Below, in pieces: positions 1 to 9,436 of a stretch of DNA of 13,459 bases. The notes beneath the pieces are model-generated. The model saw only the letters and a list, made by a program, of their open reading frames with translations. It was not told the origin of the DNA and searched no databases. The DNA comes from a virus (taxonomy: Duplodnaviria; Heunggongvirae; Uroviricota; Caudoviricetes): the IMG/VR virus record IMGVR_UViG_3300043399_000596; one strand, written 5' to 3'. The position numbers and the translations under genes were made by a program. Every line of letters starts with the position of its first letter. The stretch's first letter is position 1.

Positions 1-1803
1 CAGCGTAACAAAGAGCGTTGGGCAAAGCGTCAGGCTGATATGGTAGGTGATCCTGCTCCACAACATTATCGTGACGAGTTGGCTAAAGATGCCGCAGAGT
101 ATAGAAAAAAGCAAGGTGTGGCGGAAGAACAACTAGATGAAAAGTGCTGGGATACTCACAAGCAAGTTGGAATGAAAAAGAAGGGCGGCAAAATGGTGCC
201 TAACTGTGTTCCAAAAGAAAGTGTCGAAGAACTAGACGAGAATTTACGCAAATGGTTTAAAGAAAAATGGGTACGATTTGGTCCTGATGGCAAGATTCGC
301 GGTGACTGTGCTAGAGGTGATGATAGTGAAGGTAAGCCAAAGTGTTTGCCACAAGCAAAAGCACATGCATTAGGTAAAAAAGGTCGTAAATATGCAGCTA
401 GTAAAAAGCGCCGAGAAGATCCTAATCCAGAACGTAGTGGTAAAGCTATTAATGTTGCTACAAAAAAGAAAACAAATGAAAGTGCAGTCGAAGGAATAGA
501 AAATATGAAAATATTAGATATACAAGAATCCAATTTAGGAACTATGAATGAAGCAGCTAATCTAGCACAACAAGCAGCCATTGCTATCTCAATGAAGAAA
601 AAAGGTCAAAAGCCAAAAAATGAAAATGCAGAATACGATGACGAAGCTGGCATGGCTGAAAACAATCTAGAAACACTAGGCCGTGCAGTCGAGGGTATTG
701 ATGAGTTGATTCAATCAGGTGATAATTTACCTGAATGGTGCCAAGAAAAGATTGCTATTGCTAAATCTATGTTAGTGGCAGTTTGGGATTACATGTACAG
801 TGAGGAATCTAGTGATGAAGTAGATTCCGAAGTTGATGCTATGTTTGAAGCTATGGATATCTTTGTCGAAGAAACGGCTCTTAAAAACAATGTTAGTGTT
901 GACACAGTATGGGAAAGTTTCGAAGCCTTGTCAGATTATGAGTTGTGGAACACTGCACAGCATCAATTGCAACAACTAAACGAAGACTGGCAAAAAGTCA
1001 ACAAGAAAGATAAGACTGATGGCATGAGTCGTAAAGCTGTAAAAGCATACCGTAGAGAGAATCCCGGTTCTAAATTACAAACTGCCGTCACTACAAAGCC
1101 TAGCAAATTAAAGAAAGGCAGTAAGGCAGCAAAGCGCCGCAAATCATTCTGTGCTAGAATGAAGGGTATGAAGAAGGCACACGCAAGTGCCAAGACAAAG
1201 AGAAATCCCGATAGTCCAATCAACAAGGCACTACGCCGTTGGAATTGCGAAAGTGTTGAACAACTAGAAAAATTAGCAATGGTTTTAGAACAACAAGTTT
1301 TAGAAAAGAAACAATCTTTAAAAGAAGCAGAAAAGTATCCGGAACCTGAACAAGAAATAATTGACGTAACTCGTAAAGCTAGACTTGGTCGTGAGAGAGA
1401 AATTGCCGGTGGTGAAAAGATTGACGCACAATTAGCTAAGCAACACGCAGAACGTCAAGAGTATGAGAAGTCTGGTAAATTTTGGGTTAAGACTAAGCAA
1501 AATAATTATTTAGAAGGCCCGTTCACAGGTAAGCAGGCTGCAAATCAAGGAGCACTATCATTGTTAAAACGTGCCCCAGAGTTAAAAGGTAATTTATTAA
1601 TTACTGCTTGGGGACCAGACGAAACTCCTGTTAATGAAGCTGAACTTAGCGAAGAACAATTGTTAGCAAGAGAGTTAAAAAAACAATTAGAAATGTTTAA
1701 GCATGGTAAAGACAACGACTTAAGCAATAAACCAGTTGACCACGAGTTAGGTTCAACCCCGGCTGATAAAGAAGTACAGAAAAAGGGAGATAAAAACAAA
1801 TGA
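1..1803 (+). CDS. 5'-truncated modular virion/internal polyprotein (Lys-rich modules separated by x-x-E linkers; includes an SFCARM-type module)
   Basis: Frame 1 is open from base 1 (QRNKERWAKRQAD precedes the ATG at 40), so the true start is upstream of the window. Modules such as KCW..VPNCVP, WFKEKWVRFGP..KCLP, LPEWCQEKI and RRKSFCARMKGM..ALRRWNC are flanked by LDE/MNE/LNE/VNE. The SFCARM module resembles the phage DUF6321 family from memory; not searched. Confidence 0.8.
   Translation, partial: QRNKERWAKRQADMVGDPAPQHYRDELAKDAAEYRKKQGVAEEQLDEKCWDTHKQVGMKKKGGKMVPNCVPKESVEELDENLRKWFKEKWVRFGPDGKIRGDCARGDDSEGKPKCLPQAKAHALGKKGRKYAASKKRREDPNPERSGKAINVATKKKTNESAVEGIENMKILDIQESNLGTMNEAANLAQQAAIAISMKKKGQKPKNENAEYDDEAGMAENNLETLGRAVEGIDELIQSGDNLPEWCQEKIAIAKSMLVAVWDYMYSEESSDEVDSEVDAMFEAMDIFVEETALKNNVSVDTVWESFEALSDYELWNTAQHQLQQLNEDWQKVNKKDKTDGMSRKAVKAYRRENPGSKLQTAVTTKPSKLKKGSKAAKRRKSFCARMKGMKKAHASAKTKRNPDSPINKALRRWNCESVEQLEKLAMVLEQQVLEKKQSLKEAEKYPEPEQEIIDVTRKARLGREREIAGGEKIDAQLAKQHAERQEYEKSGKFWVKTKQNNYLEGPFTGKQAANQGALSLLKRAPELKGNLLITAWGPDETPVNEAELSEEQLLARELKKQLEMFKHGKDNDLSNKPVDHELGSTPADKEVQKKGDKNK
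110..127 (+). repeat. 18-bp direct repeat copy 1 (AGCAAGGTGTGGCGGAAG, encodes QGVAE)
   Basis: Exact match to 2482-2499, read in the same frame phase in both genes. Confidence 0.9.
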
Positions 1804-1925: not shown

Positions 1926-3566
1926 ATGAAAATTCAGCAGTTATTCGAAGGTGCTTCTCCTAAGTTACCGGGTGCAGTAAAAGGCATCCAAGTTATGTCA
2001 CCTCAACAATTCGTTGCTAAGAGTCAAGAGGGCGAAGAACCTGGCTCGGACCAATCAGTAACAGAAGGCCCGGCTTTCGATAAGTGGGCAGATGATAGAG
2101 CAGCATCGCAACTATACAAACTCAAGAGTTTAAAGAGCTACCAGGTTGTTATCATGAACAACTACTATAGAGGGAAGTATCCTGACTATAGCGGTCGTTA
2201 CTACTATGTATTAGCCAGAAGCCCAGAAGAAGCCAAACAAGTTGTATTAGATAATGCAGATGCTATCCTACAAGATTTGCTTTCTATGAAGGCGCATAAC
2301 GGTAGAAAAATATTACCACGAAACAGTGCTGTTCGTATTACTGCTGACCGTATCGGTGATGTTAGAGACGGCACAGAACATGGTCGCATGAGCACAGCTG
2401 GATTCAAGCGTATGTTTGGTCCAGACGGCGTTATGATGGTTAAGTTAAGCAACGGCGCTGTTGCTGATGTCCAAGGTCAAGAGCAAGGTGTGGCGGAAGC
2501 AACCAAACTTCCTGCACAAACCCGTGAACTAAAGGGTAAAGAGTTAGAAGATTACTTAGACAGAATTCGTACTCAGTCAAAGACAAAAACTGACAAGTAC
2601 AAGATGCCATACATTCACCGTAGTTCTGTAATGGGCTACTACAACGAAGAAGGCAAGAAGTATGATGTTGATGCAATAAAGAATGCGTTAAAAGAAAGAC
2701 CTAAAAAACTTTTAAAGCAAAATGAAAAGATGAAGCACAGCAACGGAGAATTAGAACAGTTCTTTAACATTGGGTTTGCTGCTTTAACTGGCGTTGCATT
2801 AGACGAAAATACAAATGAAATTATTATCGTAAACACTTGTCCAGGTGCCGGAAGTTGTAAAGTCGATTGCTTTGCAATGAAAGGTGGAAAGATTCAATTC
2901 CAAGGTCCTTGGTTAAGTGATGGTAGAATTTTAACATATCTATTGAACGATCCTGAGGGATTTATGAGTCAGTTAAGTTCTGAAATTGCTAAAGAAGAAA
3001 AGAAAGGTGACAAAGGTGGTTACACTGTTACGATTCGTTGGCATGATGCCGGTGACTTCTTTAGCCCTGAGTATGTAGACTTGGCAATGAACTTAGCAAA
3101 AGCACACCCGGGTGTTATGTTCTATGCATATACTAAAATGGCTGATGTTGCTTTAGCAGAAAAGCCAGCTAACTTCATGATTAACTGGAGTGAAGGGGCT
3201 CATACTAGCCAAGAGAAGAAAGTAAAAGCGCAAGATCCTGAATTAGAAAAAACTAAAAACAGTCGAATTGTTCCATCAAGTCTATTCTATGACTTATTAG
3301 TTAAGGACGAAAAGAAAAACTTAGTTAAGGGTCCTGAAGGCCAATGGCAAGTGATACCTGACAAGTTACCTGAACTAAAACAAAGATTAGCTAAAGAGTA
3401 TGGAATTAGTCCAAGTAGTATTCTTAGTTATTCTGAGTGGGACAGCAAAACAAATGGTGGTAAAGTACAAACTCCAGTTAAGTACAATGTTATTATCACC
3501 CCAGGTGAACCTGATATCACTGCCAAGAGTGCAGGAGTACTAAGTACGTTATTATTAAAACACTAA
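1926..3566 (+). CDS. gp88-like protein (CxxxxxCxxxC, IRWHDAGDF, YAYTK) with N-terminal MKIQQLFE tag and an inserted module of about 144 aa
   Basis: Motifs NTCPGAGSCKVDCFAMKG, IRWHDAGDFFS and YAYTK match my recollection of the phage 'gene product 88' family; not searched. Confidence 0.65.
   Translation: MKIQQLFEGASPKLPGAVKGIQVMSPQQFVAKSQEGEEPGSDQSVTEGPAFDKWADDRAASQLYKLKSLKSYQVVIMNNYYRGKYPDYSGRYYYVLARSPEEAKQVVLDNADAILQDLLSMKAHNGRKILPRNSAVRITADRIGDVRDGTEHGRMSTAGFKRMFGPDGVMMVKLSNGAVADVQGQEQGVAEATKLPAQTRELKGKELEDYLDRIRTQSKTKTDKYKMPYIHRSSVMGYYNEEGKKYDVDAIKNALKERPKKLLKQNEKMKHSNGELEQFFNIGFAALTGVALDENTNEIIIVNTCPGAGSCKVDCFAMKGGKIQFQGPWLSDGRILTYLLNDPEGFMSQLSSEIAKEEKKGDKGGYTVTIRWHDAGDFFSPEYVDLAMNLAKAHPGVMFYAYTKMADVALAEKPANFMINWSEGAHTSQEKKVKAQDPELEKTKNSRIVPSSLFYDLLVKDEKKNLVKGPEGQWQVIPDKLPELKQRLAKEYGISPSSILSYSEWDSKTNGGKVQTPVKYNVIITPGEPDITAKSAGVLSTLLLKH
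2482..2499 (+). repeat. 18-bp direct repeat copy 2 (AGCAAGGTGTGGCGGAAG, encodes QGVAE)
   Basis: Exact match to 110-127. Confidence 0.9.
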
Positions 3567-3569
3567 ATA
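3564..3569 (+). promoter_or_regulatory. Putative T4-like late promoter core TAAATA
   Basis: TAAATA overlaps the upstream stop and ends 5 nt before the Dps ATG (3575); no Shine-Dalgarno present. Confidence 0.55.
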
Positions 3570-3574
3570 AAGCT

Positions 3575-4015
3575 ATGTTAACCGATAACTTAAAAATATT
3601 ATTAGCCAGCACTCAGAGTTTTGCAATCAAAAGTCAAAACTTTCACTGGAATGTTGAGGGAAGTAATTTCCCTCAATATCATGCCTTCTTTGATACGTTG
3701 TATGGTGATGTAGCAGACACGATTGATAAGATTGCTGAGTATATCAGAATATTAGGTCACTATACACCAGGTAGCTTATCCCGATACTCAGAATTATCTA
3801 TTATTCAAGACCAAACAAAGATTCCACGTGCTGAGTTGATGTTTGTAGAAACACTACAAGATTGTACAAAGATGATAGAATTAGTTGCCACAATGTTTGA
3901 TGAGGCAACAGCGGATCGTCAACAAGGCATTGCTAATTACATGGCTGAATTGCAAGACTTATATGCAAAGAAAGCATGGTTCATTCGTAGCATTCTTAAC
4001 ACAAGCCGTGAATAA
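3575..4015 (+). CDS. dps: Dps / ferritin-like DNA-protection protein
   Basis: 146 aa with FHWNVEGSNFPQYHAFF and DKIAEYIRILG, the Dps ferroxidase-centre signature (HWNVxG..H; D..AE). Confidence 0.92.
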   Translation: MLTDNLKILLASTQSFAIKSQNFHWNVEGSNFPQYHAFFDTLYGDVADTIDKIAEYIRILGHYTPGSLSRYSELSIIQDQTKIPRAELMFVETLQDCTKMIELVATMFDEATADRQQGIANYMAELQDLYAKKAWFIRSILNTSRE

Positions 4016-4710
4016 TGAGAGCAAACGAATTTATTGCAGTAACTCAATTTAATGAGCAAGTAGTTGCTGAAATGCCATTGCCCGCTGACTGGGATCCTGC
4101 TCAATATGGTCGCGGCACAACATTCAAACAAAGATTAGCATACGCATTAGAAAGAGCAAAGAAACTAGGTACCGGTTCTAGTCGTGTCGCTACTACAATC
4201 GAATATCAGGGTCGTCCTACAGTGTTAAAGATTGCCAAGAATCAAAAAGGTCTGGCACAGAATAGTGTTGAAGCAGATATTCTTAGTGATGGATACGCAA
4301 GTCAGTTAGGTATATTAATTCCTATCATTGATTATGATGAACAGAATCGTGAACCTACTTGGGTTCATACTGAACTAGCACAAAAAGTAAACGAAAAGCA
4401 ACTATGCAACACGATGAAGTGTGAGAGTTTAAACTTTTTAGTAAACGCAGCGCAAGCCATTACAGGTAGAAAAAAGTTTATGGGTCCGTTTCAGGGTTAT
4501 ATTGATAGAATGAGAGAAGCAGGAAAATCAGACCAAGACATTGATACCTTCACTGAATATGCTAATGTGCTAGCAGATTTAAATTCTCAGTTTGATGTGG
4601 AGTTAGGTGATTTTCGCAGACCTGCAAACTGGGGATTATATAACGGCAAGCCTATCATCGTTGATGTTGGCTTCAACAGTAATGTTTTAACTCAGTATTA
4701 TAAAAAATGA
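4015..4710 (+). CDS. Protein kinase-like fold protein with MRANEF N-terminal tag
   Basis: Gly-rich loop LGTGSSRVA, beta3 Lys (VLKIAK), alphaC Glu (QNSVE), catalytic-loop-like GDFRRPANWG and DFG-like IVDVG occur in the correct order. TAATG overlap with dps. Confidence 0.7.
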   Translation: MRANEFIAVTQFNEQVVAEMPLPADWDPAQYGRGTTFKQRLAYALERAKKLGTGSSRVATTIEYQGRPTVLKIAKNQKGLAQNSVEADILSDGYASQLGILIPIIDYDEQNREPTWVHTELAQKVNEKQLCNTMKCESLNFLVNAAQAITGRKKFMGPFQGYIDRMREAGKSDQDIDTFTEYANVLADLNSQFDVELGDFRRPANWGLYNGKPIIVDVGFNSNVLTQYYKK

Positions 4711-5168
4711 GAGCTACCGAATTTTTAGCAGAACTATTCAAGCCAGGTAAAAACTGGGAATGGGCCTTTCGTGGTAGTGAAGAAGCGATGGCTACTTTTA
4801 CCGTAGGTGATGTTGATTATTTGTGGTATGCTTACACATATTTGAAGCACAACCCTACTAAATGGGAAATCATATTCCGTGTCAAGCGTGACGATGACCA
4901 CGAAGGTAAAAAAGACTTGTTCGGTAAAACGGGTACAGGTAATTCAGCAGAAGTTATGTCTACCGTAGTGGATATCACAAGAAACTTCTTAGAAGAATAC
5001 GGTAACAAAGTTTTAGAAATCACATTTTCGTCTAAAGGTGATTCACGCACCGGGTTGTATGCAAAAATGGCCAAGCGTTTATTACCTAACTGGGATATGA
5101 AAACTAGAGAAGGTGTTAATGGAACTGATTTCTTATTAATAAACCCCAAAGCATACGAGATTAAATAA
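4707..5168 (+). CDS. Hypothetical phage protein with MRATEFLAE N-terminal tag
   Basis: 153-aa ORF with ATGA overlap. The C-terminal SRTGLYAKMAKR motif is of a type I recall in large-phage hypotheticals; function unknown. Confidence 0.8.
   Translation: MRATEFLAELFKPGKNWEWAFRGSEEAMATFTVGDVDYLWYAYTYLKHNPTKWEIIFRVKRDDDHEGKKDLFGKTGTGNSAEVMSTVVDITRNFLEEYGNKVLEITFSSKGDSRTGLYAKMAKRLLPNWDMKTREGVNGTDFLLINPKAYEIK
5162..5167 (+). promoter_or_regulatory. Putative late promoter core TAAATA
   Basis: Ends 4 nt before ATG 5172; no Shine-Dalgarno. Confidence 0.55.
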
Positions 5169-5171
5169 CAT

Positions 5172-5246
5172 ATGAATGAATATCCAGTATTTCCAGAACA
5201 AGAAGGTGAGTGGGATAGACCCGTAAATCCTTATAGCCCTGTATGA
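5172..5246 (+). CDS. 24-aa micro-ORF (MNEYPVFPEQEGEWDRPVNPYSPV)
   Basis: Not in the ORF track. Preceded by TAAATA-4nt-ATG; its TGA overlaps the desaturase ATG (ATGA at 5243-5246); fills the intergenic gap exactly. Confidence 0.7.
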   Translation: MNEYPVFPEQEGEWDRPVNPYSPV

Positions 5247-5959
5247 TAGCATTAATTTATACTCTAATAGTAACACACATTACTATCATATGTGTGACTG
5301 TTTTCCTACACAGAGGACAAGCACACAAAGGATTAATTTTCAATCCTATACTAAGTCACTTTATGCGTTTTTGGCTATGGCTAACGACAGGCATGGTTAC
5401 CAAGCAATGGGTAGCCATACACAGAAAACATCACAAAGACTGTGACACTCCAGGAGATCCTCATAGTCCGTTAATTTACGGATTAAAACGTGTATTGTTC
5501 GGTGGTGCATTCTTGTATCACATTGCCAGCAAAGACACAAAAATGATTGAAAACTTCGGAGTGGGGACACCTGATGATTGGATAGAAAAACATGTTTATA
5601 GTAAGCATTCCAGACTAGGTATAGGTTTGATGCTATTGATTAACATAATCTTGTTTGGTCCTATAGGATTATTAATTTGGGGTATTCAAATGATATGGAT
5701 TCCGTTCTGGGCTGCAGGTGTTGTCAATGGAATAGGACATTGGTGGGGCTACCGAAACGGTGTCACCAAAGATAATAGTCGCAATATTAGCCCCCTTGGT
5801 ATCATTATCGGTGGAGAAGAACTCCATAATAATCATCATTTAGACCCTGCAAGTCCTAGGCTAAGCAAGCGCTGGTTTGAACTAGATATGGGTTGGATTT
5901 ATATTCAATTGTTCAAAATTCTTGGACTGTTGAAATTACGAAACACACTACCTTCGTAA
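5243..5959 (+). CDS. Membrane fatty acid (acyl-CoA/acyl-lipid, delta-9 type) desaturase
   Basis: Three His boxes (HRGQAH, HRKHH, HNNHH), hydrophobic transmembrane segments and the C-terminal WFELDMGW motif. Confidence 0.92.
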   Translation: MIALIYTLIVTHITIICVTVFLHRGQAHKGLIFNPILSHFMRFWLWLTTGMVTKQWVAIHRKHHKDCDTPGDPHSPLIYGLKRVLFGGAFLYHIASKDTKMIENFGVGTPDDWIEKHVYSKHSRLGIGLMLLINIILFGPIGLLIWGIQMIWIPFWAAGVVNGIGHWWGYRNGVTKDNSRNISPLGIIIGGEELHNNHHLDPASPRLSKRWFELDMGWIYIQLFKILGLLKLRNTLPS

Positions 5960-5968
5960 GATAGTGTG
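5944..5968 (+). other. Stem-loop CACACTA-(11 nt)-TAGTGTG spanning the desaturase stop codon
   Basis: Perfect 7-bp inverted repeat (5944-5950 / 5962-5968) with an inner CTT/AAG pairing; no U-tract follows. Confidence 0.5.
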
Positions 5969-5974
5969 ACAGGC

Positions 5975-5981
5975 ATAAATA
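5975..5981 (+). promoter_or_regulatory. Putative late promoter core ATAAATA
   Basis: Ends 4 nt before ATG 5986 of the endonuclease. Confidence 0.6.
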
Positions 5982-5985
5982 CTAC

Positions 5986-6591
5986 ATGTATTACATTTAT
6001 GCTTATATTGACCCTAGAAATGGTGCACCGTTTTACGTGGGTAAAGGAAAAAATAATCGCAAATCCGACCACCTCAGGGAGCACTTAGGAAAAACGGATA
6101 ATGCAGATAAAGTAAGGATTATCCAAGAACTTGCAGAACTAGGGTTGTTACCTACAATAGTTGAGTTAGAAAATAATATAGCTGATGAAAACTTAGCGTA
6201 CAACCGAGAAACATATTTTATACTGAAATACGGTAGAATGGGATTTGAAGAAGGTGGAATTCTAACTAACAAGGCACTGCATGGTCATCCACCTAAGCCT
6301 ATATGGGATAATGCTCGGAAAAAGCAACACAGCGAATGGAATAAAAAATACTGGACACCCGAACGAATTAAAGAACACAAAGAAAAGAATTTAGTCCCCC
6401 TGACGGAAATCGGCAGAAACAAAATTAGAGATAGCAGTTTAGGTACAGTTTCTGTAGTAGATATAAATGGTAATGGCATGCGAATATCAAAAGAAGTGTA
6501 CGCTGAGGTGGATAGGTCTGGTCCGATAAATACACATATGTATGTTTCAGTTTCATCATCGGAAGCTAAACGTAGAAGAAACACACCTTAG
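5986..6591 (+). CDS. GIY-YIG (LEM-3/Seg-like) free-standing putative homing endonuclease
   Basis: N-terminal YYIYAYIDPRNGAPFYVGKGKNNR (GIY-YIG hairpin plus conserved Arg), downstream catalytic Glu (AYNRE) and LTN motif; basic C-terminal DNA-binding tail. Confidence 0.85.
   Translation: MYYIYAYIDPRNGAPFYVGKGKNNRKSDHLREHLGKTDNADKVRIIQELAELGLLPTIVELENNIADENLAYNRETYFILKYGRMGFEEGGILTNKALHGHPPKPIWDNARKKQHSEWNKKYWTPERIKEHKEKNLVPLTEIGRNKIRDSSLGTVSVVDINGNGMRISKEVYAEVDRSGPINTHMYVSVSSSEAKRRRNTP
6526..6532 (+). promoter_or_regulatory. Putative internal late promoter ATAAATA within the endonuclease 3' end
   Basis: ATAAATA-CACAT-ATG has the same geometry as the gene-start boxes and lies about 50 nt upstream of the structured element. 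Confidence 0.35.
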
Positions 6592-6675
6592 GACCGGTAT
6601 TAAGTTACCGTAGTGTGAGCCGGCTGCTGGCTTTAGGAGTAACGATTCGCTACCGTGAAACTATAAAGTGAGCTT
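6580..6675 (+). ncRNA. Candidate structured non-coding RNA (unclassified)
   Basis: GC-richer intergenic island with nested helices: CACAC 6582-6586/GTGTG 6613-6617, CGGTA 6595-6599/TACCG 6606-6610, AGCC 6618-6621/GGCT 6629-6632 or GCTTTA 6630-6635/TAAAGT 6664-6669, and GTAACG/CGCTAC 6639-6653. No covariation data available. Confidence 0.5.
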
Positions 6676-6687
6676 TTGCCATTTCTG

Positions 6688-6694
6688 ATAAATA
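6688..6694 (+). promoter_or_regulatory. Putative late promoter core ATAAATA
   Basis: Ends 5 nt before ATG 6700. Confidence 0.6.
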
Positions 6695-6699
6695 TTAAT

Positions 6700-7497
6700 A
6701 TGAGAGCATCAGAATTAGAAGAATCCGCGGTTGATGAGTTAAAGCGTAAACTCCCTAGTCTTAATAAAACAGACTATGACACCATTGACCATCTAATGCG
6801 CCGAATAAGTAAGCGACACCATATTACCGGTAAAAAGTTACATGACATGTTTGTCGCAAAATACAAGCATACTCCGGATCATTGGATTAAGAAATATAAA
6901 GAAAAACTCAAAGAAACTGACAAAGTAGAGGAAGGTAATCCTAATTTAATGGTAAATCCTAATCCAGCTAAGGTGTATATAGTATACGGAAATGGTAAAC
7001 CAGTTGTCAAGTTTTCTAATCCAAAAGACGCAGATTCAGCAGCACGAAGTCTTAGAAGTAAATTTAGGGATATCACTTACACTATAGTTACAAAAGATGA
7101 ACACGGTAGGGTGTTTGAAGATTCCTTAAAGCCTGAAGACGAAAATGATAGAATAAAACACTTTATTAACTGGGCTTACAAAATTGTAAACCTACAGAAA
7201 CCATATCCTAAATTTACATTTAGTGCAGATACTGAAGAAGCACAGCAAGGGAGCCATACTGGAAGACACTCTCACGACGGTACAAGAGGTGAGATATGGG
7301 TATATACTGCTAATCGTAATCTAATTGACATTCTACGTACGGTGTTTCATGAAATTGTACATGAAAAACAAATGCAGCTAGACATGATAAAACCGGGTGA
7401 TAGTTATCCCGGAAGCCCGATCGAAGTTATGGCAGACATGCTAGCTGGAAAGTATATAAAAATATACGGCAAAAAGCATCCTGAGATATTCCAATGA
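6700..7497 (+). CDS. Multi-module protein with C-terminal HExxH zinc-metallopeptidase-like domain; MRASELEE tag
   Basis: Start moved from TTG 6676 to ATG 6700 (late box plus MRAxE tag). The C-terminus carries NRNLIDILRTVFHEIVHEKQ and a downstream SPIEVMAD, a possible third Glu ligand. Confidence 0.7.
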   Translation: MRASELEESAVDELKRKLPSLNKTDYDTIDHLMRRISKRHHITGKKLHDMFVAKYKHTPDHWIKKYKEKLKETDKVEEGNPNLMVNPNPAKVYIVYGNGKPVVKFSNPKDADSAARSLRSKFRDITYTIVTKDEHGRVFEDSLKPEDENDRIKHFINWAYKIVNLQKPYPKFTFSADTEEAQQGSHTGRHSHDGTRGEIWVYTANRNLIDILRTVFHEIVHEKQMQLDMIKPGDSYPGSPIEVMADMLAGKYIKIYGKKHPEIFQ

Positions 7498-8156
7498 GAT
7501 TTTCTGAATTTGCTACTGAGGATTTAAGCCGTCGAGGCTTTTTACGAGGTGCAGCTGCCGCAGCAGGTGCAGCTGCCGCAGGATACCAACTAACAAAAAA
7601 CACAACTCCTCCCACCGAAAATCCCCCACCAGTTCAAAAACAGTTTATACCGTTAAGCAGCAACCCTAGCTTAGAAACTTTTTTGTTTAATCAAGCTAAG
7701 GCTGCAGGTTTAAAAGGTCTTGAGTTAGCGCAGTTCATGGCGCAAACAATGCACGAGACCTGGAACTTTACTAAACTAAAAGAAAAGCCAATGGGACCTA
7801 AGTATTTTGCTAAAAAATATGATCCCAAATACGCACCCAAGACAGCTAAAATTATAGGAAATACTAGAATAGGTGATGGCGAGAAGTTTCACGGTAGAGG
7901 ATTTATTCAATTAACTGGTAGAGAAAATTATGCACGTGCTAGTAAGTCATTAGGAATTGATTTACTCAATAATCCTGAACTAGCAGCAGATCCAAAAGTA
8001 GCATCACAAATTGCTACATGGTATTGGAACACAAGAGTTAAACCCAATGTTAGTGATTTTGCTGATACTCGCCAAGTTACTCGACAAATTAATCCTGCGC
8101 TTCATGGTTTAGAGCGTAGACATAATAAATTTTTAAAGTACGAAAAAGTTGTATGA
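7494..8156 (+). CDS. Glycoside hydrolase family 19 (chitinase-like lysozyme) with MRFSEFATE tag and a twin-arginine-like segment
   Basis: GH19 motifs AQFMAQTMHET, GDGEKFHGRGFIQLTGRENY, LLNNPELAA, ATWYW and TRQIN. Confidence 0.9.
   Translation: MRFSEFATEDLSRRGFLRGAAAAAGAAAAGYQLTKNTTPPTENPPPVQKQFIPLSSNPSLETFLFNQAKAAGLKGLELAQFMAQTMHETWNFTKLKEKPMGPKYFAKKYDPKYAPKTAKIIGNTRIGDGEKFHGRGFIQLTGRENYARASKSLGIDLLNNPELAADPKVASQIATWYWNTRVKPNVSDFADTRQVTRQINPALHGLERRHNKFLKYEKVV
7547..7581 (+). repeat. Tandem duplication AGGTGCAGCTGCCGCAG x2 (period 18) encoding the Gly/Ala run
   Basis: 7547-7563 is identical to 7565-7581. Confidence 0.85.
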
Positions 8157-9436
8157 GAGCGAAAGAATTTCTATTAGAATATAGTCGCCAAAAGACCGTT
8201 CAAATGATGGGTCCACAAATTGTCAATGCTTTCATGACAGGTGGTGATAAGCGTACATACGAGTTGCATAGTGACACATATAAAGACCAAAACGGAAATC
8301 CTAATACTGATAAAATTCTTAATGATGTACTAACAAATTTAGAAAATTCAGATCCGACGCCTAACAAAATTTATACACCTTGGATTGCACGTGAGTATGC
8401 TAAAGGTAATATTAAACGTATTGAAGATGCTATTGTTTGGTTGCCTACATACTTAGCTAGATACGATAAAGCAAAACGTAGACAAGATTTTAGACAAGAC
8501 GCTAAAGATATTATGCGTTTGAACTTTACACAGTTCTTTAACATTATCTCTAATTATGAGCCGCCGCCGGAACCAATCAAAGATAGAGGTCAAGCAAAAC
8601 AAGTTTTCAAAGACGAGAATGTAAGAGTAATTGTTCCTGAAGATCAACAAGCTGCTTGTTATTATGGTCAGGGTACAACTTGGTGTACGGCAGCAACACA
8701 AAGTAGTAACTACTATGAACGTTATGCACGTCAGGGAAAGTTGTATATATTATTGCCTACAAAGCCTCGATATGATGGTGAAAAATATCAACTACATTTT
8801 GCAACTGGTCAATTCATGGATGAAACCGATGAACCCATTGATATTGCAGATTTGTTGACAGTACGCTTTCCTGAGTTACTACCTTTCTTCAAAGAACATG
8901 AGCCAGAAATTAATAATTTGGTAGTTTTCGCTGACGATAAACTTTTAGAAACTATTGGCAACAAAATACAAGAATTAGCACTAGACCATATTTCTGAATT
9001 ATTCAGTGATTGGGAAGTAAATGATGATTCATTCCGTGAATGGCAGTGGGAAGAGGCTGAACGAATGGGTATCATTGATCCTGAAACAATGGATGAAGAC
9101 GAAATTTGGGATATCATAAATAATAACGACAAGTTAAATGATTACAGTGACTATAATCCTGAAGCTAGATATTCATACAAGTTGCTGCAAAATTCTATAA
9201 ATTTATCTGCTAGAGAAATAAAAGCCTTTGCTGAAAGAATGGCAAATCAAGATGACGGTAACGGTGAGGCTATAACCATTTCTGGAATGGATAGTTTATA
9301 CAGTTTTGCTGTACATGATTATTTTGGTATGGATAGTGGCCGCAGAAGTCGAGGAAATGATGACTTTGGGTTAAGTGAGTGGATATACAAACATATCTCT
9401 GTCGGTACAGACGGAACGGTAAAGTATCACCAATAA
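8153..9436 (+). CDS. Hypothetical protein with PcfJ-like 'AACYYGxGTxWC' domain, acidic C-terminus and MRAKEFLLE tag
   Basis: 427 aa with ATGA overlap. Motif VIVPEDQQAACYYGQGTTWCTAA..YYERY..GKLYI..KYQLHF. The PcfJ-like assignment is from recollection only. Confidence 0.6.
   Translation: MRAKEFLLEYSRQKTVQMMGPQIVNAFMTGGDKRTYELHSDTYKDQNGNPNTDKILNDVLTNLENSDPTPNKIYTPWIAREYAKGNIKRIEDAIVWLPTYLARYDKAKRRQDFRQDAKDIMRLNFTQFFNIISNYEPPPEPIKDRGQAKQVFKDENVRVIVPEDQQAACYYGQGTTWCTAATQSSNYYERYARQGKLYILLPTKPRYDGEKYQLHFATGQFMDETDEPIDIADLLTVRFPELLPFFKEHEPEINNLVVFADDKLLETIGNKIQELALDHISELFSDWEVNDDSFREWQWEEAERMGIIDPETMDEDEIWDIINNNDKLNDYSDYNPEARYSYKLLQNSINLSAREIKAFAERMANQDDGNGEAITISGMDSLYSFAVHDYFGMDSGRRSRGNDDFGLSEWIYKHISVGTDGTVKYHQ

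Follow-up and report, generated by a model that had tools for sequence, protein, structure and literature searches.

A shared nine-residue start on unrelated proteins of an uncultured T4-related jumbo phage, a probable capsid-targeting tag

The stretch of DNA analyzed here (the window) comprises 13,459 nucleotides of the IMG/VR virus record IMGVR_UViG_3300043399_000596 and contains five genes for unrelated proteins that begin with nearly the same nine residues, referred to below as the tag. The window forms the end of an 83.7-kb contig (G000) that is about 23% complete by CheckV, implying a genome of about 350 kb, and its source phage, of which the contig is a fragment, is a large uncultured T4-related jumbo myovirus of roughly that size. 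Among cultured phages, those closest to G000 in family-B DNA polymerase are Phosso and Atu_ph07 (48–50% identity), followed by the jumbo myoviruses XaC1, Yersinia fHe-Yen9, Serratia BF, and Vibrio 2.275.O (about 43–44%); a megablast search of the window against cultured phages returned nothing useful. The + strand holds every gene of the window, in the order of the 3′ part of a multi-module protein gene, a 40-codon open reading frame (ORF), a GP88 gene (1926), the Dps gene (3575), ORFs 4015 and 4707, a desaturase gene (5243), a GIY-YIG endonuclease gene (5986), ORFs 6700, 7494 (GH19), and 8153, and then the genes of an 87-aa protein, the DNA polymerase, a clamp-like protein, and one further ORF. 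The five tagged ORFs are the following:

4015..4710, + strand: tagged ORF of 231 aa, start MRANEFIAV (tag 4015–4041), kinase-like candidate body from EMPLPADWD.
4707..5168, + strand: tagged ORF of 153 aa, start MRATEFLAE (tag 4707–4733, ending in L-A-E), weak DUF6934-like body.
6700..7497, + strand: tagged ORF of 265 aa, start MRASELEES (tag 6700–6726, L-E-E then S), helical N-domain and C-terminal HExxH zincin-like domain.
7494..8156, + strand: tagged ORF of 220 aa, start MRFSEFATE (tag 7494–7520), twin-arginine signal (7521–7583), Pro-rich linker, and GH19 domain.
8153..9436, + strand: tagged ORF of 427 aa, start MRAKEFLLE (tag 8153–8179, ending in L-L-E), PcfJ-like lead.

All five starts fit MR[A/F]xE[FL], an agreement well in excess of chance, and among ORFs of at least 40 aa in the 83.7-kb contig, these five are the only ones that begin with MR..E[FL]. 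An earlier, sequence-only reading had proposed that this phage marks non-homologous proteins for packaging with such a tag, and the six N-termini on which it drew (those above and that of ORF 1926) all read as it gave them. The proteins are indeed unrelated, since blastp among the window proteins finds nothing past residues 1–9 (all E > 0.09), and the Ala codon of the tag varies (GCA, GCT, GCA, GCG) as described. Tagged starts overlap the preceding stop codon as ATGA at 4707, 7494, and 8153 and as TAATG at 4015, and ORF 6700 carries the tag without any overlap, behind a 108-nt spacer, again as described. The ATG at 6700 is internal to a TTG-started ORF from 6676 and is taken as the real start because a conserved ATAAATA lies 5 nt upstream. 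The listing of Dps, desaturase, endonuclease, and replication genes (DNA polymerase and clamp) as untagged was correct. These proteins and the 87-aa protein lack the tag both in the window and in 27–79 relatives each. The inclusion of ORF 1926 stands only in part: it begins with MKIQQLFE, its family with MKITELYEGA or MKIKELYEGA, so that a looser, tag-like start is kept within the family, and membership is uncertain.

The tag was delimited with relatives. Eighty related loci were retrieved through their DNA polymerases (80–91% identity), and a complete relative of 348.7 kb and 382 genes (G001) served for genome-wide counts; a search for relatives with ORF 8153 alone gave a single unrelated domain match (L006). 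Among the 80 loci, many differently sized ORFs upstream of the polymerase share the start. In 42 distinct tagged N-termini, M1 and R2 are followed by A3 (34/42), E5 (42/42), F6 (33/42), [ILV]7 (31/42), and E9 (29/42); conservation collapses past residue 9, with none from residue 10 on, and therefore the tag is M-R-A-x-E-F-[ILV]-x-E. Six-frame translation of all fetched loci places the core RA.EF[ILV].E directly after ATG in 186 of 189 cases, after GTG or TTG in the other three, and never elsewhere, and in loci fetched without the pattern a looser core stands at a start in 30 of 34 cases. When IMG/VR was searched with a degenerate 27-base tag pattern, at least 120 stretches were found, against none for the reversed control pattern. 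All 101 inspected matches open ORFs (56–482 aa), which fall into at least 21 cargo clusters after tag removal, including DUF6267, DUF6934-like, ParB-N-like, and GNAT-like bodies as well as a 125–141-aa family. The motif scan of genome and relatives suggested by the sequence-only reading thus finds the tag on start codons of unrelated cargo.

The constraint on the tag is at the protein level. Codon choice in the tags tracks that of the genome for Glu (GAA/GAG 35/9 vs. 77/23%) and Phe (TTT/TTC 23/11 vs. 68/32%) and likewise for Ile, which upholds what had been concluded from the Ala codons. Only Arg is biased, with AGA in 38 of 44 tags vs. 27% genome-wide, largely because the frequent ATGA stop-start overlaps force AGA, and no bases upstream of the tagged starts are shared across loci. 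The peptide is also retained within cargo families. In the 4015 family, 94 of 120 homologues are tagged at the extreme N-terminus, a place that the tag keeps both when the 4015-like domain comes next and when a GNAT-like, HD, DUF6934, or other domain intervenes. In the 8153 family, 72 strict and 35 loose tags occur among 120 homologues, and the tag is kept down to 36% identity; a few residues separate it from the family's own LLEY...T start in some homologues (P0200). In one ORF 6700 orthologue (L065), tag and body are set apart by 45 low-complexity residues, and the 4707-type module is fused upstream of 4015-like or GH19 domains in relatives.

The end of the tag resembles a protease site that recurs between domains. 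The motif [LIV]-x-E at residues 8–10 closes 37 of the 42 distinct tags vs. 10% of untagged proteins, and three of the five window tags (4707, 6700, 8153) have this canonical end. Among ORF 6700 orthologues the start itself drifts (MRASELEES, MKINEILSES, MLTEHIIIES, MISDEILTES, and others) and the ending φ-x-E-S (φ, hydrophobic) stays. In fusions, the 4015-like domain is preceded by φ-x-E behind at least six different upstream modules. The pattern is most regular in the GH19 family, in which 98 of 120 homologues have a twin-arginine motif, located from residue 12 to beyond residue 180 behind varied N-terminal modules. [VIL]-x-E followed by D-[LIM]-[ST]-R-R is found at 92 of these 98 motifs (background 1.8% per position), and all 59 motifs lying 20 or more residues from the start directly follow [VIL]-x-E. 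In the window, one joint of this kind occurs twice:

110..127, + strand: QGVAE junction (V-A-E), with an identical 18-mer at 2482–2499 in ORF 1926; candidate cleavage or shuffling joint.

The occurrence of φ-x-E at joints suggests, circumstantially, that a head protease may separate fused cargo. It was also observed that the Tat-like (twin-arginine translocation) motif of GH19 homologues is often buried 85–180 residues in (P0241–P0360), and that some homologues have a Gly/Ala-rich segment of the signal-anchor-release (SAR) type, without twin arginine, in its place.

The tag and its end resemble those of phage T4. As the sequence-only reading had stated, the T4 record shows that the internal proteins IPII and IPIII start with MKTYQEFIAE, and IPI starts with MKTFKEF; other T4 gp21 substrates resemble the tag as well, namely gp24 (MAKINELLRE), gp22 (MLKEQLIAEA), and Alt (MELITELFDE). 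T4 capsid-targeting sequences (CTSs), which gp21 cleaves off, comprise 10–20 residues (PMC5694885). Loading requires no more of IPIII than its first ten residues, and residues 4 and 7 of the CTS are needed for targeting, 8 and 10 for processing (PMC9026906). F6, [IL]7, and E9 of the clade align with T4 F7, I8, and E10, and T4 Y4 is replaced by Ala, an alignment of nine residues that is too short for a homology statistic.

The head genes of G001 follow the T4 order of portal, two small acidic or basic proteins, S77 protease, coiled-coil protein, and capsid protein. The portal is 32% identical to T4 gp20, and the S77 protease (Pfam E = 1.7e-28) is 35% identical to T4 gp21, an enzyme that works mainly within proheads. 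The coiled-coil scaffold-type protein of 366 aa contains 22 [LI]xE sites, and the gp23-type capsid protein (E = 4e-43) has four in its N-terminal 43 residues. Five other large tag-bearing contigs (191–525 kb) all encode the protease and carry 3–10 tags each, 35 in total vs. five for the control pattern. When the prohead protease of G001 was modelled in complex with the N-terminal 40 residues of a tagged family, this uncontrolled prediction scored 0.00 and speaks neither for nor against the reading.

The transcriptional context of the tagged genes is late-promoter-like. Two copies of ATAAATA precede genes of the window:

5975–5981, + strand: ATAAATA of the endonuclease gene, 4 nt before the endonuclease start.
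6688..6694, + strand: late-promoter-like ATAAATA, 5 nt before ATG 6700, heading the coupled 6700–7494–8153 unit.

The motif stands 4–6 nt upstream in 15 of 15 distinct ORF 6700 orthologue starts. Of its 138 occurrences in G001, 62 lie within 40 nt upstream of a gene (62 of 382 genes), in two spacing classes of 4–6 nt and 16–28 nt, and the large terminase gene, that of a baseplate wedge subunit, and genes of fibre-like proteins are among those behind it. In G001, the tagged genes fall into six transcription units, and ATAAATA opens every one. On the enrichment of tags among late genes, which the sequence-only reading had named as a check, the tagged units are late-promoter-like, and replication and early genes lack the tag. 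The short 4–6-nt spacing (25 G001 genes and two window genes) suggests leaderless late transcripts, and the 16–28-nt leader class of G001 has GGA-type ribosome-binding sites.

Tagged genes are exchanged at one site and dispersed over others. The left border of the exchange site is the Dps gene:

3575..4015, + strand: Dps/ferritin-like gene, untagged, anchoring the swap site on the left; stop codon overlapping the first tagged start.

Dps is kept in 27 relatives as the left border of a variable cassette. Across relatives, the slot directly after it, with overlapping stop and start, is occupied by at least six non-homologous tagged genes, and relatives have between 0 and 6 tagged genes in the interval from Dps to the polymerase. 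The claim of an interchangeable payload is borne out to the extent that the tag is a separable module and cargo is swapped in this hyperplastic locus. Five other loci of G001 also carry tagged genes. The idea, suggested by adjacency, that Dps is a partner cage for tagged proteins was rejected, since Dps is not nearby at those five loci.

At a probability of roughly 60%, we consider the tag to be this clade's version of the T4 capsid-targeting and cleavage sequence for proteins loaded into the prohead, and each of the alternatives considered below is less well supported. The tagged proteins would be made late in infection, and the tag would dock the cargo onto the scaffolding core of the assembling prohead. 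A gp21-type (S77) prohead protease would then cut after the Glu of [LIV]-x-E, and probably also at [LIV]-x-E between fused domains, and the mature cargo would remain beside the DNA in the head until infection delivered it into the next cell. It is further proposed that cargo genes are exchangeable by recombination because each starts with the same 27 bases; recombination at these bases would give rise to the hyperplastic cassette between Dps and DNA polymerase. Docking, cleavage, packaging, and ejection are all inferred here from sequence. Indirect evidence from a virion comes from Pseudomonas phage PA5oct, whose protein EST35_0205, a homologue of ORF 8153 (blastp E = 2e-20) that begins with MKLFEVFTLYE, carries a virion-protein annotation from electrospray ionization tandem mass spectrometry (PMC7318152).

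Several observations weigh against a capsid-targeting role. The mass spectrometry list of PA5oct also holds non-structural proteins, for example an SSB-like (single-stranded DNA-binding) protein, and its support is weak. Distant cultured relatives possess an S77 protease and lack the tag, which in five of them (Atu_ph07, XaC1, fHe-Yen9-04, BF, and Vibrio 2.275.O) is at chance level, with seven matches vs. two for the control. Two window tags are non-canonical at the presumed cleavage site, that of ORF 4015, with V and no Glu at position 9, and that of ORF 7494 (A-T-E). The motif at domain joints could instead simply be part of the downstream module. The 23% fragment G000 contains no head genes, and the prohead protease of the window phage is thus a prediction from relatives with 81–91% identical DNA polymerases. 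The view of ATAAATA as a late promoter comes solely from where it lies and from its resemblance to T4 TATAAATA, and a tblastn search with T4 gp55 retrieved nothing from G001 or G000, leaving T4-type late transcription unconfirmed. Finally, the Tat- or SAR-like segment of the GH19 protein would be no less in place on a lysin exported late than on a protein that is packaged, and this protein fits packaging only if it is re-exported after injection.

Among the alternatives, the one that survives best, improbable as we judge it, is that the tag is another N-terminal signal, such as a degron, a docking site for a phage or host protease or chaperone, or a handle for timed holding, on proteins that never enter the head. 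A ClpP-like gene of G001 adjoins one tagged gene, and the GH19 cargo is clearly periplasm-bound, both of which this explanation would accommodate. However, no enzyme gene is consistently found beside the tagged genes across loci, the motif resembles the T4 CTS together with the gp21 site, and both the φ-x-E junction rule and the late-promoter-like context are in keeping with processing in the prohead. The tag motif is not known to match any ClpXP or N-end-rule signal.

A slightly more doubtful explanation is that the common start serves chiefly for recombination at the DNA level, as a joint through which genes come and go in the cassette in the manner of the promoter early stem-loop (PeSL) cassettes of T4-type phages, and that the peptide has no targeting role. 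Differing cargo in the one slot after Dps, with the same overlapping stop and start, would be expected of such a joint, as would the prevalence of AGA. Yet the latter is largely forced by the ATGA overlaps, no upstream bases are shared across loci, and synonymous sites of Glu, Phe, and Ile vary as they do elsewhere in the genome. Besides, the peptide is kept in the 8153 family to 36% identity, tagged genes occur at the five further G001 loci, and a joint has no need for start-only placement or for a φ-x-E end. A role in recombination and one in targeting are not exclusive and may coexist.

It is highly unlikely that the start is conserved for the sake of translation initiation, for example as a downstream box in leaderless or coupled translation, because, although the distance of only 4–6 nt from ATAAATA to the ATG in ORF 6700 and its orthologues means that their transcripts may be leaderless and most other tagged genes are translationally coupled, the tag is carried in three start contexts (leaderless-type, leadered, and coupled), synonymous variation is normal, and the amino-acid conservation of F6, [IL]7, and E9 has no obvious RNA rationale. 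A requirement of leaderless translation for the tag was rejected separately, as 24 of the 25 short-spacing G001 genes lack it.

If the capsid-targeting reading is extended to the domain joints, the head protease might be a general maturase of a modular payload, with cargo loaded by the tag either as single domains or as φ-x-E-joined polyproteins that are cut apart in the prohead. Cleavage of GH19 proteins at [VIL]-x-E before D-L-S-R-R-G-F-L would then expose a buried Tat signal, and a wall-degrading enzyme injected into the cytoplasm would be re-exported to the periplasm by the host Tat system. We regard this extension as speculative and rather unlikely.

The type of system proposed is already known from T4 and its close relatives. 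In both T4 and the present clade, a short N-terminal propeptide with an E-F-[IL]-x-E core and [LI]-x-E end stands on unrelated proteins, the portal, S77 protease, and gp23-type capsid protein are homologous and in the same order, and cargo is encoded in hyperplastic loci. In contrast to T4, the clade consists of uncultured jumbo phages of about 350 kb known from sequence alone, the tag has nine residues instead of ten and begins with MRA instead of MKTY, and its terminal motif also marks inter-domain joints. Cargo of the clade is not confined to small basic proteins and extends to large, enzyme-like, and multi-domain ones, which reach about 480 aa with the tag and 840 aa with variants of it. 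In giant phages of the phiKZ/SPN3US type, propeptides of ejection proteins are cut at x-x-E by a gp21-related prohead protease and are thought to target the proteins to the prohead (PMC5694885, PMC7411985, PMC10052503). Those phages likewise have head-internal, ejected proteins processed by a gp21-related protease, but their propeptides are 80–130 residues long instead of one shared short tag, and they belong to another, nucleus-forming lineage with a virion RNA polymerase.

A further parallel is offered by the polyvalent proteins of phages and conjugative elements, whose anti-host or takeover domains were reportedly proposed by Iyer et al. in 2017 to be delivered with the DNA. Polyvalent proteins share with the present cargo their zincin peptidase, ParB-N-like, GNAT-like, and muramidase domains and their free shuffling. 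They are, however, single giant polypeptides, whereas the cargo here is encoded mostly by separate tagged genes or as fusions at putative protease sites. New features are the sequence of the tag, the clade in which it occurs, a cargo rich in enzymes and multi-domain proteins, and the junction rule with its masked Tat signal. If the capsid-targeting reading is true, T4-style head addressing would be no peculiarity of T-even phages, and instead a conserved and evolvable delivery system of abundant uncultured jumbo phages. The nine-residue signature would then allow candidate injected proteins, with possible takeover or anti-defence functions, to be read directly from metagenomes and would add to the T4 sequence a second tag, different in sequence, with which delivery of proteins in phage heads could be engineered. 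Through the junction rule, protease-cut cargo polyproteins and a masked export signal would become directly testable.

The identities proposed for the cargo vary in firmness. ORF 7494 is a GH19 protein as claimed (Pfam PF00182, E = 2.4e-17). Its segment SRRGFLRGAAAAAGAAAAG at residues 12–30 has Tat features, an S/T-R-R-x-F-L-K motif followed by a weakly hydrophobic stretch, and scores 19.7 bits with Pfam TAT_signal, below the cut-off of 22.7. The catalytic domain therefore belongs in the periplasm, given the Tat- or SAR-like segment directly after the tag. The protein is tagged as the sequence-only reading had it, but the export signal argues against a simple cytoplasmic effector. G001 encodes a second GH19 protein, which has neither tag nor signal. 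The HExxH motif attributed to ORF 6700 is confirmed in the C-terminal domain, where it is invariant among orthologues. The structural model (predicted local distance difference test, pLDDT, 79.5) has SPRTN, Wss1, and abylysin as its nearest PDB entries, all of them weak matches of which the best has E = 0.014, and Atlas rows for this ORF point to M78-like domains.

The kinase-like assignment of ORF 4015 remains a lead. A Gly-rich loop, Lys, D..N, and DVG could be read by eye, a related Atlas cluster has a 17% Phage_T7_kinase share, there are weak APH matches, and profile searching of PDB sequences and Pfam scanning yielded no more than weak kinase hints; the AlphaFold model is poor (pLDDT 58.7), with no fold match in the PDB. 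Likewise, the PcfJ-like assignment of ORF 8153 is a lead, drawn from one Atlas cluster in which PcfJ has a share of 26%. NCBI files one homologue of this ORF (P0175) under Daphnia sinensis; it is probably phage DNA in a freshwater animal assembly.

The gp88-like assignment of ORF 1926 is secured by a Pfam match, and this gene and the remaining features of the cassette are as follows:

1..1803, + strand: large basic multi-module protein, 3′ part (DUF6321 and others), cut by the contig end.
1926..3566, + strand: GP88-domain ORF of 546 aa, start MKIQQLFEGA (L-F-E), PF17338 E = 1.3e-24.
5243–5959, + strand: fatty-acid desaturase gene, untagged insert.
5986–6591, + strand: GIY-YIG (LEM-3-like) endonuclease gene, untagged insert with its own ATAAATA.

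The endonuclease gene is absent from the inspected relatives and is probably a homing-endonuclease insertion. Modules of the protein at 1–1803 (DUF6321 and KWF...GKKKKGG) occur elsewhere as small stand-alone tagged proteins (L161, L118), and full-length relatives of this protein start with MSNILKGIINES, a possible tag variant.

Two arrangements of tagged genes in G001 may be added. The ClpP-like gene is divergent from, and adjoins, a tagged gene of 358 aa that starts with MRYTEFTRT (G001:C1:235252-237007, L108). The commonest tagged cargo is the 125–141-aa family with YRFGVA, of which a tandem pair (G001:C1:16385-18032, L097) is translationally coupled behind a baseplate-connector-like gene and adjoins the large terminase gene.

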